This document shows, in pieces, positions 50,165 through 54,082 of a DNA stretch of 56,936 nt; the stretch's first letter is position 1, and the number at the start of each line of letters is the position of its first letter. Made by a program: the position numbers and the translations under genes. Location: NCBI GenBank assembly GCA_030835745.1, contig JAUROA010000028.1, forward strand, positions 1 to 56,936. The letters are read 5' to 3'. The notes under the pieces are model-generated. The model ran no database searches and had not been told where the DNA came from. It saw only the letters and a program-made list of their open reading frames with translations. This stretch comes from Alphaproteobacteria bacterium (GTDB lineage: Bacteria > Pseudomonadota > Alphaproteobacteria > Rickettsiales > UBA1997).

Positions 50165-53100
50165 ATGAACTATTTTTGGCATAAAATAAAAAAAACACTC
50201 ATCCCATTAATCGCTATATCATTCTTAATTAGTTGCGCAGAGGAAAAGGGTGGAACTTGTATAATGGCTAATCCATTTATGGATAGTAGAGGAGTTATAT
50301 TAAGTGGCAAAGGGCTAAATGTTTCTGGAGGATATAATAGCGACGTGCCAACTCATCCAGAAAAAGGTGTGCCAGAATATGGAACAGAACCCCTTCCAAT
50401 TGATGGGCAAACTTCTGACTGGCTTGATACTGGTTTTAGATATAATGGCAAAGATATATTAATTAAAGTTAGTGGAAAAATTTACCCGTTTGGCATTAAA
50501 GGACAAAACACAAATATCTGTAAATTCTGTGCTCAAAAACCTGGTGATGAAACATGCTACTGTATTGGCGATACTGAAATTGATACTACAGAATGTAAAG
50601 AAAATATATATCCTCCTCAATTTCAATCTAATAAAAGAGATTTTTATTATAATCCAAATATATCTTTTACCTCCCTTGCTAGACTTAAAATTGATGAAGA
50701 TACAGATGGTTCGCAGCGTCTTGTCCTAAGAGAGCCTACTGATAATAAAGCCTGTTATTATGATAGGGGCATGAATGCTTATATTGGATTTTGGGGCGAC
50801 ATAAAGGGTAATGAAAATCCTAAACAGGCTTTTCATCTATTTTCAAGAGAAGAAATTTGCGAGGTAATGAAAGATGGCGAATGCAAATATAAATCATATT
50901 TAATATCTTATAAAAAAGATCAAATCAACGCTAATCGAGGAGAGGTGATTAAATTAATTTTTAATGACAGATTTTATCATGATAATTCAGGGGCTTATAA
51001 TGTTCAATTTCTAAGTGGCATTGGGGGCACAGTTAACCCTGGCCTAATAGAAGAAATTATTACAAAATTTGAAGAGCTAACTTTAGGTAAAAAAAATTCT
51101 GACGGAAAAAGAGAGGGTAGTATAATTGAAAATCTGTATAATAATATTGTACAATCTAACTTTAGTAGCTTTATAAGATATTCACTAATATTATATATTG
51201 TTATCTTTGGCCTTTCAATTCTTGCTGGGGTAGTTGAGGTTAATAGAAAAGAAATATTTGATAGAATAATAAAAATTGCCTTAATTGTTACCTTTATTAG
51301 CCCTCAAAGCTGGAATATGTATAATCAATATATTGTAAATTTTTTCAGCAATGGTATCGATTCATTACTTGAAATTATTGACAATTCTCAAAGAGGTTTA
51401 TTGATGTGTGACAGCAATGATGATAGTGGCAAAGCATCTCGATTTGCCTGCCTTGATTTTATGGTAAAATCATTTTTTTCTGAATCAATGACAACAAAAA
51501 TATTTGGACTATTATTTAATTCATTATTTGGCCTAATATATATAATTATTATTTTTGGCATAATTGCATTTTTTATATATTTAACTCTTTTTGCAGCTAC
51601 AATTTACATTGTAAATCTTTTAAAAGTTATTTTTGCCCTTTCTTTGGGGCCTATCTTTATTTGCCTAACTCTATATAAAGCTACATCATCATTATTTAAT
51701 AATTGGATTACATTTTTAGTTTCAAGATCTCTTGAAATTATGGTGCTATTTGCTGTTTTATTTTTCTTTTTACCAGTCATACAGCAGCTATTTAATAGCA
51801 TGCTATTTTACAGCGTTTGTTATCATGACTTTTATTTTATCAAGCCAATTCTTTCTTCTACAATTCCTATCGCTGAATTAGAAAGATCTCTGGGCGAATG
51901 GATTTTAGAATTTATAAAACTTGGCGCACTCATATATTTTACATTATTAATTCTTCAGCAATCATCTTCATTTGCTTCAAACCTTGCAGCATATGGTGGT
52001 GCCAAAATGGGTAGTTCAAGAGAAATGGCCAGTCAGCTTAGTGGTCAAGGAACATTTGAAATTGCAAATAAATTAATGAAAACAATAAGAAATAGGGCAT
52101 TTCAAGGTTCTAAACTTGCTTTAAAATATAGCTCGGGCTTCCTTGGTTTTGTTGGAAGAGCAGCCTTCTCTGAAACCATCAAAAAAATGGGCAATGCCAT
52201 GGATGCAATTGATTATGCAACTGGTAAAATAGGAAGATTTATGCCATTTAGAGGCCTTGGCACAAGAGTTATTGATGATGCTATTAAAAAAGCGCAATCA
52301 AAGGCAAATCAAAGAAATTTAACCGGGGAAGAGGCTCAAGCATTTATCAGAAAACAAGTTCGTGATGAGTTAACAGAAAAGAGAATAGGGTTTGATAGAA
52401 AAAACCCTGCAAAAGAAATGAATGCTCAAAATATCAAATTCAACGCGTTAAGAATAAATGAGCAAGCTATAAATAGAAGGCTTGATAAATTTCTAATTGA
52501 AAAGCCAATAAAAGATAAAATTAGCGAAATTTGTAAAAATAGAAAAATGGATCAAAACTTCATTCCAACAGCTCAGGAAAGATCAGCAATTAAAGAAGAG
52601 GTAAAGCAATGGGCTGAAAATTCTAGGATCGATCAGAAAAAGGTTGAAAAATACATGGAAAAAAGCCGTATTAAAAGCTATATCAGAACCAAATCTGCAC
52701 TCTCTTCAAGTGAGGCAGTCAAGAAATTTGCTGGCAATGAGGAGTTAAAAAAGCAATATCTAGAGCATCTTGAGCAGGAAAGACTAGATAGAAAAATTAA
52801 ACTTCATGATAAACGAATCGATCGACATGACAAAATTCATAATCATCCTTTACATTCTCAATTAGACAAAACAACAACTGACAGTTCTAGATTATATTAT
52901 CATGGAAAGGATATTGCGAAATCGGTATATAAAGAACTTAAAAATAGAGTGTCACGAGCTTATCACAATATTAGGCGAGACACTGCCCATAATCCCAAAA
53001 TAGCAAGAGCAAATTTTGAAAGAGCCGTATTAAGAAGAGAAAAAGGGTTTTTTAAGAAAGATACCATTAAAAATACCGCTACTTACCAAGCTATAGCTAA

Positions 53101-54082
53101 AAATCTTAGAAAGAAGGATAAGAGCACAATAACAACAAAAGTAAGCAGAGAGCTTCAAACAATAAAAGAAACACAGGCAAAACAACTTGAAGCAAAAAAA
53201 TTAAGCGTCATTTATGCTCGATATATAAAAGAACAAAAAAAAGAAGTTGCCAAAAACAGAGATCTTCTACTTACTGATGCAAATAGAGAAGAAGAGCGAA
53301 ACAAAATAATCGAAACAATAAGTGAAGACTCAGCATTTCAAATTAAAGATCAAAAAATTACATTAACACCCCCCGAAGCTTCTGACAACAAAACCCCTTT
53401 CATTTCAAAATTATTACTAGTTGATGAAAAAATAAAAGATCCAAAAAAGAGAAGATTTGCCGAAACATTTATGGAACATTTTAAAGAGGACAATGATATG
53501 ATGAAAAGCATTAGGGAAGATAATAAAGAGGAAATAGAAAAAAAATTGACAAATCAAGATCAAGATATGGATAATATTTTGGATAATATTTTAAATAGAT
53601 TGAATGAAAAATATGGGTCAGAAAATATTGACCCTGAAGCATCTAGAAGAAGGGCTTTTGAACTTTTGATCCCGGATAATGATGCACAAAAAACTGAAGA
53701 AAAAGAGCCAGCAAAAATTTTGCCAGATGGCGAAGGAGATGATGCATTTAGCCAAATTGTTGAAGATAATATCTCTAGACCAGATTCTGATATCATCCCG
53801 GATTATAATAGCCAACAAGCAATCCTGGAAGGGGGCTCTTCGCAACCAAAGTCAACATCTAGCAAAACTGCAAACACAGCATCTGTAGCAAGTTCTTTTG
53901 CAGCCTCTCCTGCTAAAAAAGATGACGGCAAAAAGTCAAAAGAAAAAGATCAAATCAAGAAATATGAGCTAGAACGACTAAATCAAGCCTTAGAACATGA
54001 ACAGAGCAAAGAAAAAAAATATCAAGAAGAAAACGCTATTAAAGAAATCAAGCGGGCAATAGACAGGTTAAAGAAAAGTTAA
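50165..54082 (+). CDS. Giant VirB6/TrbL-family membrane lipoprotein (1305 aa) with a Cys-rich N-domain and a ~700-aa charged C-terminal tail
   Basis: Lipobox LISC at aa 21-24. The polytopic core (aa ~335-600) contains ALSLGPIFICLTLYKATSSLFNNWITFLVS, which matches the TrbL/VirB6 signature as I recall it. The tail is K/E/R/D-rich and predicted coiled coil. Confidence 0.7.
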   Translation: MNYFWHKIKKTLIPLIAISFLISCAEEKGGTCIMANPFMDSRGVILSGKGLNVSGGYNSDVPTHPEKGVPEYGTEPLPIDGQTSDWLDTGFRYNGKDILIKVSGKIYPFGIKGQNTNICKFCAQKPGDETCYCIGDTEIDTTECKENIYPPQFQSNKRDFYYNPNISFTSLARLKIDEDTDGSQRLVLREPTDNKACYYDRGMNAYIGFWGDIKGNENPKQAFHLFSREEICEVMKDGECKYKSYLISYKKDQINANRGEVIKLIFNDRFYHDNSGAYNVQFLSGIGGTVNPGLIEEIITKFEELTLGKKNSDGKREGSIIENLYNNIVQSNFSSFIRYSLILYIVIFGLSILAGVVEVNRKEIFDRIIKIALIVTFISPQSWNMYNQYIVNFFSNGIDSLLEIIDNSQRGLLMCDSNDDSGKASRFACLDFMVKSFFSESMTTKIFGLLFNSLFGLIYIIIIFGIIAFFIYLTLFAATIYIVNLLKVIFALSLGPIFICLTLYKATSSLFNNWITFLVSRSLEIMVLFAVLFFFLPVIQQLFNSMLFYSVCYHDFYFIKPILSSTIPIAELERSLGEWILEFIKLGALIYFTLLILQQSSSFASNLAAYGGAKMGSSREMASQLSGQGTFEIANKLMKTIRNRAFQGSKLALKYSSGFLGFVGRAAFSETIKKMGNAMDAIDYATGKIGRFMPFRGLGTRVIDDAIKKAQSKANQRNLTGEEAQAFIRKQVRDELTEKRIGFDRKNPAKEMNAQNIKFNALRINEQAINRRLDKFLIEKPIKDKISEICKNRKMDQNFIPTAQERSAIKEEVKQWAENSRIDQKKVEKYMEKSRIKSYIRTKSALSSSEAVKKFAGNEELKKQYLEHLEQERLDRKIKLHDKRIDRHDKIHNHPLHSQLDKTTTDSSRLYYHGKDIAKSVYKELKNRVSRAYHNIRRDTAHNPKIARANFERAVLRREKGFFKKDTIKNTATYQAIAKNLRKKDKSTITTKVSRELQTIKETQAKQLEAKKLSVIYARYIKEQKKEVAKNRDLLLTDANREEERNKIIETISEDSAFQIKDQKITLTPPEASDNKTPFISKLLLVDEKIKDPKKRRFAETFMEHFKEDNDMMKSIREDNKEEIEKKLTNQDQDMDNILDNILNRLNEKYGSENIDPEASRRRAFELLIPDNDAQKTEEKEPAKILPDGEGDDAFSQIVEDNISRPDSDIIPDYNSQQAILEGGSSQPKSTSSKTANTASVASSFAASPAKKDDGKKSKEKDQIKKYELERLNQALEHEQSKEKKYQEENAIKEIKRAIDRLKKS

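Follow-up and report, generated by a model that had tools for sequence, protein, structure and literature searches.

An extended, lipobox-bearing VirB6 paralogue with family-wide linkage to tRNA-Leu(UAA) in environmental Rickettsiales

The locus and its product

The stretch of DNA analysed here (the window, 56,936 nucleotides) comes from an Alphaproteobacteria bacterium (UBA1997, Rickettsiales) and comprises positions 1 to 56,936 of the forward strand of contig JAUROA010000028.1 in assembly GCA_030835745.1. Its subject is an intact open reading frame (ORF) at 50165-54082 on the + strand. The product, of 1305 amino acids (aa), is an enlarged relative of VirB6, a protein of type IV secretion systems (T4SSs), and its gene lies directly behind a gene for tRNA-Leu(UAA). 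From 5′ to 3′, the locus contains the following features:

49824..49851, + strand: promoter-like site TTGACA-16-TAGAAT (11/12, a consensus match only), just upstream of tRNA-Ile
49876..49952, + strand: tRNA-Ile(GAU), found by ARAGORN and Rfam
50056..50142, + strand: tRNA-Leu(UAA), found by ARAGORN and Rfam, with the CCA end encoded
50143..50164, + strand: AT-rich spacer of 22 nt, with no obvious Shine-Dalgarno sequence
50165..50236, + strand: predicted lipoprotein signal peptide, aa 1-24, lipobox L-I-S-C, position +1 being Cys24
50237..51154, + strand: N-domain, aa 25-330, predicted to be exported, Cys-rich, without a Pfam family
51155..52084, + strand: polytopic VirB6/TrbL core, aa 331-640, with the Pfam match at aa 341-546 (51185-51802)
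52085..54082, + strand: charged tail by composition, aa 641-1305 plus stop, with a coiled-coil-like end

The N-terminus of the protein, MNYFWHKIKKTLIPLIAISFLISC, has the layout of a lipoprotein signal peptide on inspection, with a K-rich n-region and a hydrophobic h-region that lead into the canonical lipobox LISC. Residues 24-330 contain 10 Cys, namely Cys24 and nine more, which include the groups CKFC (119-122), CYC (131-133) and EC (144). Hydropathy segments fall at aa 334-598, within the core. The tail is 665 aa long (residues 641-1305), consists to 38% of K/R/E/D and carries a net charge of +32; among orthologues its length varies from ~550 to 1800 aa. Neither the N-domain nor the tail matches a family in Pfam, and NCBIfam has no model for the protein.

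A description of the same DNA made without database searches, the sequence-only reading, had already proposed most of this architecture. Its 1305-aa ORF with lipobox LISC, its N-domain of about ten Cys with CKFC, CYC and EC groups and its K/E/R/D-rich tail, given as ~700 aa and measured here at 665 aa, all stand. The core string that it quoted is present in the ORF and includes W514, and the start 22 nt after tRNA-Leu(UAA), itself after tRNA-Ile(GAU), is exact.

The extreme C-terminus has a character of its own. The last ~45 aa of the ORF (53950-54079) are heptad-like in the protein and in its orthologues, and designed coiled coils (SYNZIP; E 0.08-0.26) are weak matches to the family profile at this end. 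These hints suggest that a terminal coiled coil may be conserved on an otherwise poorly conserved tail.

VirB6 identity and predicted fold

The core matches the TrbL/VirB6 family (PF04610) at E 2.9e-16, with 60.3 bits over aa 341-546 against a cut-off of 25.9, and scores 62.8 bits in the genome scan. The HMMER check that the sequence-only reading had named thus gave a significant match. For structural comparison, an AlphaFold2 (AF2) model of aa 25-650 was built on an alignment of 20 orthologous sequences. Its core blocks have a predicted local distance difference test (pLDDT) score mostly of 75-92. When this core was compared with the PDB by Foldseek, the top 9 matches were all TrwI/VirB6 chains of the R388 T4SS stalk (7o3v, 8rt9, 8rtd), with E down to 1e-6, a Foldseek probability of 1.00 and a TM-score on the target of 0.53-0.66. 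Beyond the TrwI/VirB6 chains, the search returned nothing at E <0.1. At the sequence level, the family profile retrieved no VirB6 structure from the PDB, only coiled-coil noise.

In Agrobacterium tumefaciens VirB6, a Trp that follows the central transmembrane helices is reported to be essential (PMC2653234). The corresponding residue is taken to be W514 (LFNNWITF), which is invariant in alignments A1, A3 and A5 and is equated with the essential Trp by position only. Profile match and predicted fold together identify the 1305-aa protein as a genuine enlarged member of the VirB6 family. The comparison with R388 also indicates what has been added. TrwI, which forms the pentameric base of the T4SS stalk, has the core fold in common with the 1305-aa protein but is a minimal VirB6, roughly its resolved chains of 188-272 residues, without lipobox, N-domain or tail. 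A pentamer of VirB5 caps TrwI in R388.

A scattered T4SS in the genome

The assembly comprises 1.13 Mb in 67 contigs and is about 80% complete. On the contig of the window (C19), no match to virB4, virB8, virB9, virB10, virB11-type genes or virD4 was found; virB2, virB3, virB5 and virB7 were not searched. A scan of the whole genome gave the following inventory:

C19 (50165-54082 of the window), + strand: VirB6 paralogue, 1305 aa, lipobox LISC
C48:4715-10063: VirB6 paralogue, 1782 aa, lipobox LSSC
C28:26710-31893, - strand: VirB6 paralogue, 1727 aa
C52:8814-11951: VirB6 paralogue, 1045 aa, overlapping the virB4 end
C52: virB4, 189 bits
C45:5709-8180: second virB4 (virB4-II), 116 bits
C30:2655-4076: virB10, solitary
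C40:16379-18349: virD4, solitary
C50: virB8 and virB9, adjacent, one copy of each
C9: two VirB11/T2SSE-type ATPases

The core T4SS parts (VirB4, VirB8-VirB11 and VirD4) are therefore all encoded elsewhere in the genome. The sequence-only reading had described the gene as standing alone with no other T4SS genes. For the window this is correct as far as virB4, virB8-virB11 and virD4 are concerned (of the other genes it named, virB2 and virB3 were outside the search), but for the genome it is not, which encodes virB4 twice, virB8-virB9, virB10, virD4 and VirB11-type ATPases. The same reading had placed the protein as a dispersed VirB6 paralogue of a Rickettsiales vir homologue (rvh) system, and this proposal fared well: the genome has four such giants, one of which follows virB4.

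The four giant VirB6 paralogues (1045-1782 aa) share 23-36% identity over locally aligned segments. The tandem virB6 array behind virB3-virB4 has not been kept, in that the C52 paralogue alone follows virB4 and the other three are dispersed. In comparison, the virB8-virB9-virB10-virB11-virD4 cluster of Rickettsia (PMC2653234) is less scattered than the T4SS genes of this genome. Since all T4SS genes here occur singly or in pairs, dispersal is a genome-wide rule and not a peculiarity of the gene for the 1305-aa protein. Duplicated VirB4 and multicopy VirB6 are hallmarks of rvh systems (PMC11077975; PMC2653234), and the named relatives of the 1305-aa protein are all ‘Rickettsiales bacterium’ metagenome-assembled genomes (MAGs) or a Megaira endosymbiont. 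Taken together, these features argue that the organism has a scattered rvh-type T4SS.

Several details of the inventory stand apart from this question. The VirB6 core of the C28 paralogue is split, the first third of the profile matching aa 622-728 and the rest aa 1359-1545, with ~630 residues inserted between them. The virB10, virD4 and virB4-II genes each lie alone amid housekeeping genes, virB10 being flanked by genes for a PpsR-like kinase and an acyltransferase.

Relation to the VirB6 arrays of classical Rickettsiales

A word-index homologue search returned 6 and 29 relatives only, none from classical Rickettsiales, and the exhaustive profile search described below for the N-domain was needed. 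Within the order, 200 genomes were searched with the N-domain profile. A strong, full-length N-domain match, almost always in a single copy, was present in each genome sampled from the organism's own GTDB family. Other families, complete genomes included, gave weak and partial N-domain matches (E 1e-6 to 1e-11) in giant ORFs.

Two comparison genomes illustrate these more distant relatives. The first is Rickettsia-like, a label that rests on its paralogue sizes and on the grouping of a Megaira protein with its RvhB6d-sized paralogue. It has five tandem VirB6 ORFs of 859, 675, 957, 887 and 1161 aa, and the last four sizes match the published means for RvhB6b-e, which are 674, 971, 886 and 1154 aa. 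The last ORF, of 1161 aa, is the best match to the 1305-aa protein, with 24.5% identity over 580 aa (E 1.6e-33) in an alignment that spans N-domain and core. Its start, ...LLALSGCSGDTCIDPDDFG / MNRNIFITLLISLLALSGCSGDTCIDPDDFG, has the same lipobox, the second Cys and the C-I-x-x-x-D-F signature. In Rickettsia, RvhB6e is the fifth and last member of the rvhB6a-e array (PMC2653234); an ORF of RvhB6e size begins with lipobox and second Cys as the 1305-aa protein does. RvhB6e differs in genomic setting, as it closes an array with no tRNA nearby, whereas the gene for the 1305-aa protein is solitary behind tRNA-Leu.

In the second comparison genome (L049, Anaplasmataceae-like), virB4 is followed by four VirB6 ORFs. 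Again the last of these (1098 aa, lipobox LVTGC) is the best match, with 25% identity over 534 aa (E 3.8e-38), and it too has a second Cys after its lipobox. The second and third VirB6 ORFs of L049 also open with lipobox-like sequences. This agrees with published work on Anaplasma phagocytophilum, in which VirB6-3 and VirB6-4 were described as ‘extended VirB6-like’ proteins with conserved lipoboxes and predicted to be lipoproteins (PMC7648143). Both are accessible to trypsin on the cell surface (PMC7648143), and their genes belong to a co-transcribed sodB-virB3-virB4-virB6-1..4 array (PMC7648143).

The resemblance between the A. phagocytophilum proteins and the 1305-aa protein covers the polytopic TrbL/VirB6 core, the predicted N-terminal lipobox and the large hydrophilic extensions. 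With VirB6-4 the 1305-aa protein further shares a core toward the N-terminus and a long C-terminal extension, and both kinds of VirB6 occur in rvh systems with multiple paralogues. Nevertheless, the differences are clear. The Anaplasma genes form a co-transcribed operon, in contrast to the solitary gene behind tRNA-Leu. Unlike Anaplasma VirB6, the 1305-aa protein has a defined Cys-rich module of ~300 aa that is strongly shared only within one environmental family, and its tail does not consist of tandem repeats.

A maximum-likelihood tree of the core domain resolves two clades with 100/100 support. Clade I contains the C52 and C28 paralogues, the first member of the Anaplasmataceae-like array and the RvhB6a- and RvhB6b-sized proteins. 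Clade II contains the 1305-aa protein, the C48 paralogue, the environmental family, the RvhB6c-e-sized proteins and array members 2-4. Full-length similarity suggests orthology of the 1305-aa protein with RvhB6e or VirB6-4.

Lipobox and N-domain

To describe the domain more broadly, 1.84 billion representative proteins were searched with its profile, which matched 258 clusters at E <=1e-3, 110 of them at E <=1e-30. Nearly all of these proteins are 1200-2400 aa long, and their N-domain spans roughly residues 26-350. Of the 104 full-length family representatives, 90 (about 87%) have a lipobox with a second Cys behind it. Residue +2 is D/E in 54 of these 90 (60%), and the spacing from lipobox to second Cys is 3 residues in 63, giving the pattern ...L[AS]SC-D/E-x-G-C-[VI]-E-A-D-E-F-D. 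The 1305-aa protein is itself atypical for its family in this region (50165-50260), with Ala at +2 and the second Cys 7 residues on.

In E. coli, Asp at position +2 is the classical signal for retention of a lipoprotein in the inner membrane. The prevalence of D/E at this position fits a lipid anchor bound to remain in the inner membrane together with the rest of the protein, which is polytopic there.

Modelled alone by AF2, the N-domain reached a pLDDT of 70 and a predicted template modelling score (pTM) of 0.63. The model is mostly a beta-sandwich and closes with two helices that connect to the first membrane helix. The structural check on aa 25-330 named by the sequence-only reading was thus successful in yielding a model, but Foldseek found no significant fold relative in the PDB, the best E being 0.12. 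A picornavirus jelly-roll capsid, LipL32 and a lectin or carbohydrate-binding module (CBM) fold were considered as relatives and set aside (probability <=0.15), and no relationship to them is claimed.

The proposal that the lipid anchor and Cys-rich N-domain are novel does not hold. The same signature occurs in the Rickettsia-like and Anaplasmataceae-like arrays, the domain is represented in 258 clusters, and lipoboxes are on record for A. phagocytophilum (PMC7648143).

Linkage to tRNA-Leu(UAA)

The tRNA-Leu(UAA) gene is single-copy in the assembly. It lies immediately upstream of the orthologue, on the same strand, in all 30 family loci tested, a count that took in every family locus that includes the 5′ end of the gene; with the present genome this makes 31 genomes in 14 GTDB genera. 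The same tRNA-Leu(UAA)-gene order recurs in eight named MAG loci, whose collection overlaps with the one tested. The orthologue is present in 17/17 genera of the family. None of the Rickettsia-like, Anaplasmataceae-like and third-family loci examined shows this linkage.

Around this pair the genomic context is fluid. Upstream of the tRNA, aroB is found in many loci, while a gene for PBP1A and tRNA-Ile are found here; tRNA-Ile(GAU) also precedes the pair in three genomes of the same genus (L066, L068, L070) but not in other genera. The genes downstream of the orthologue vary among loci as well. Retention of the pair at 26-37% protein identity, with both flanks reshuffled, is a pattern that usually marks a transcription unit and suggests a tRNA-mRNA operon.

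Sequence features of the locus are compatible with such an arrangement. No terminator-like site or hairpin was found on the + strand between the tRNAs and the ORF, and Rfam reports the two tRNAs and nothing else around the ORF start. Promoter-like matches number 31 in the region, against 21 expected from shuffles, so that the site upstream of tRNA-Ile is weak evidence for a promoter of a tRNA-Ile/tRNA-Leu/rvhB6 transcript. Most likely, tRNA-Leu(UAA) and the VirB6 gene are expressed as one tRNA-mRNA transcript, as judged from gene order.

The thrU-tyrU-glyT-thrT-tufB operon of E. coli is an established case of tRNA genes co-transcribed with a protein gene. Both cases have tRNA directly ahead of the protein gene in the same orientation, separated from it by a short spacer that lacks a terminator, and in both the order is kept across genera. 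The partner differs, being a translation factor in the tufB operon and a secretion-system subunit here, where co-transcription is a proposal.

Some peculiarities of individual loci deserve mention. The spacers of L018 and L024 (139 and 233 nt) contain inverted repeats resembling repetitive extragenic palindromic (REP) elements, with gtcgtaagtcg...cgacttacgac and ggggctggtcttgtgccagcccc-type hairpins, whereas short spacers are without them. The reading frame is often open from tRNA-Leu into the orthologue, and the database gene calls for the orthologues L013, L017 (= P0005) and P0136 begin inside tRNA-Leu, with spurious N-termini such as ...PVQVRPQVP..., a translation of the tRNA itself. Several database proteins of the family are therefore wrongly extended through the tRNA gene, which matters for their annotation. 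On the 3′ side, several genera have dnaJ as the next gene after the orthologue (L010:11700-12836, L012:12668-13789, L015:11196-12338). Two database proteins (P0035, P0181) combine DnaJ (PF00226) and TrbL Pfam domains; they represent either genuine fusions or gene calls that read through a gene boundary.

Proposed role and alternatives

The evidence fits best, and with good though not full confidence, an extended VirB6 (RvhB6-type) subunit of a scattered rvh T4SS that is lipid-anchored and fixed behind tRNA-Leu(UAA). According to this proposal, the protein would be exported by Sec, then lipidated and cleaved at Cys24 by Lgt, which the genome encodes, and LspA. The N-domain of ~300 aa, envisaged as a disulphide-bonded beta-sandwich, would lie in the periplasm, held by its lipid at the outer leaflet of the inner membrane. 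The polytopic core may join the inner-membrane and stalk platform, as the TrwI/VirB6 pentamer does in R388. The basic tail of ~665 aa would project into the cytoplasm. Such a location is probable under the positive-inside rule, which an odd number of membrane helices, from 5 to 7, would fit. The four diverged VirB6 paralogues would either co-assemble or alternate, a question that concerns all rvh systems (PMC8035066). In the history of the family, the ancestral virB4-virB6 array would have been broken up and this paralogue fixed downstream of tRNA-Leu(UAA).

Several points weigh against this proposal. The gene adjoins no T4SS gene, and only a single virB8 and a single virB9 were found, where rvh systems typically have two of each; degenerate copies may escape the hidden Markov models (HMMs) in an assembly that is 80% complete. 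LspA was not found in this same incomplete assembly. As it is present in 15/15 other family genomes tested, one of them of the same genus, its absence here is most likely an assembly gap. Branching inside clade II is unsupported, and the 1305-aa protein groups with the C48 paralogue at 93/91, so one-to-one orthology with RvhB6e or VirB6-4 is not proven. With regard to the tail, the extended VirB6 of the F plasmid, TraG, has a periplasmic C-domain. Co-transcription has synteny as its sole basis, and the orthologous spacers between tRNA and start range from 19 to 364 nt, about half of them being <80 nt. More generally, the analysis establishes family membership, fold, the genome-wide set of T4SS parts, the conservation of lipobox and N-domain and the tRNA linkage, whereas lipidation, topology, assembly with Rvh parts into the T4SS and co-transcription are inferred.

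The solitary position of the gene invites other explanations, the most serious of which is a VirB6-derived envelope machine independent of the T4SS, such as an adhesin, a platform for surface display or a device that spans the periplasm. Independence would explain transcription apart from all vir genes, and the gene does lie apart from every T4SS gene in all 31 family genomes examined. The large extensions at both termini, specific to the family and without an assigned function, would also suit such a machine, as would the trypsin accessibility of A. phagocytophilum VirB6-3 and VirB6-4 on the cell surface (PMC7648143). Separation from the vir genes loses much of its force, however, in a genome where all T4SS genes are scattered singly or in pairs. 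In other families, the nearest homologues of the 1305-aa protein are members of virB4-virB6 arrays, the array of A. phagocytophilum is co-transcribed (PMC7648143), and the VirB6 core is well conserved, including the essential Trp. A T4SS-independent machine is accordingly considered distinctly unlikely.

Two further explanations take the immediate neighbours of the gene as their starting point, and both are very improbable. The sequence-only reading had raised the possibility that the VirB6 fold was co-opted for an envelope function in one operon with the downstream alpha/beta hydrolase and Mur-ligase. The three genes are on the same strand, with 7-nt gaps and an overlap, and the ligase resembles MurF and carries a membrane region at its N-terminus. 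Synteny contradicts this idea, since no homologue of hydrolase or ligase follows the orthologue in 7/7 related loci that reach past its 3′ end (an eighth ends inside the gene); dnaJ, tRNA-His or other genes are found there instead. The other explanation is arrival on a genomic island integrated at tRNA-Leu, for which it can be said that tRNA genes are classic integration sites and that the gene abuts the tRNA 3′ end. Yet the window has no partial tRNA-Leu repeat anywhere and no integrase ORF near the gene, and the GC content of the ORF (32%) is close to that of the window (30%). Furthermore, a patchy distribution is lacking, the gene being present in every genus of the family and the arrangement being fixed in 14 of them at the protein identities given above. 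This pattern fits ancient vertical inheritance and not a recent insertion, and the island was rejected.

Returning to the rvh subunit, a more specific version of its role can be formulated. If rvh systems are taken to lack VirB5, the N-domain may occupy the place of VirB5 above VirB6. Jointly, it is conceivable but doubtful that the N-domain replaces the VirB5 pentamer atop VirB6 and that the paralogue is made from a tRNA-Leu(UAA)-mRNA precursor. Were this true, different RvhB6 paralogues would give the stalk different tips, and tRNA 3′ processing would create the 5′ end of the mRNA. The supply of the subunit would then follow the transcription of the tRNA, i.e. growth rate.

Significance

In kind, the 1305-aa protein is an ordinary extended VirB6 with a lipobox, and it belongs to an environmental subfamily that has no description in print. 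As enlarged, lipid-anchored VirB6 proteins are known in Rickettsia and Anaplasma, the tRNA linkage alone is new. No other observation made here extends existing knowledge, and the interest of this one is modest. The role of the VirB6 extensions in Rickettsiales is ‘not yet known’ (PMC12857230, PMC8035066), and the use of duplicated, enlarged VirB6 proteins in this order is not answered by the finding.

Comparison across families nonetheless places the protein in a wider context. The start with lipobox and second Cys emerges as an ancient signature of one of two deep VirB6 clades, spanning environmental freshwater lineages as well as Rickettsia-like and Anaplasmataceae-like genomes. The 258 N-domain clusters provide a sequence set sufficient to model the domain. 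In one whole family, a VirB6 paralogue has been uncoupled from virB4 and is now linked to a tRNA gene that is essential and single-copy, and this linkage constitutes a natural experiment on the separate regulation of RvhB6 paralogues.

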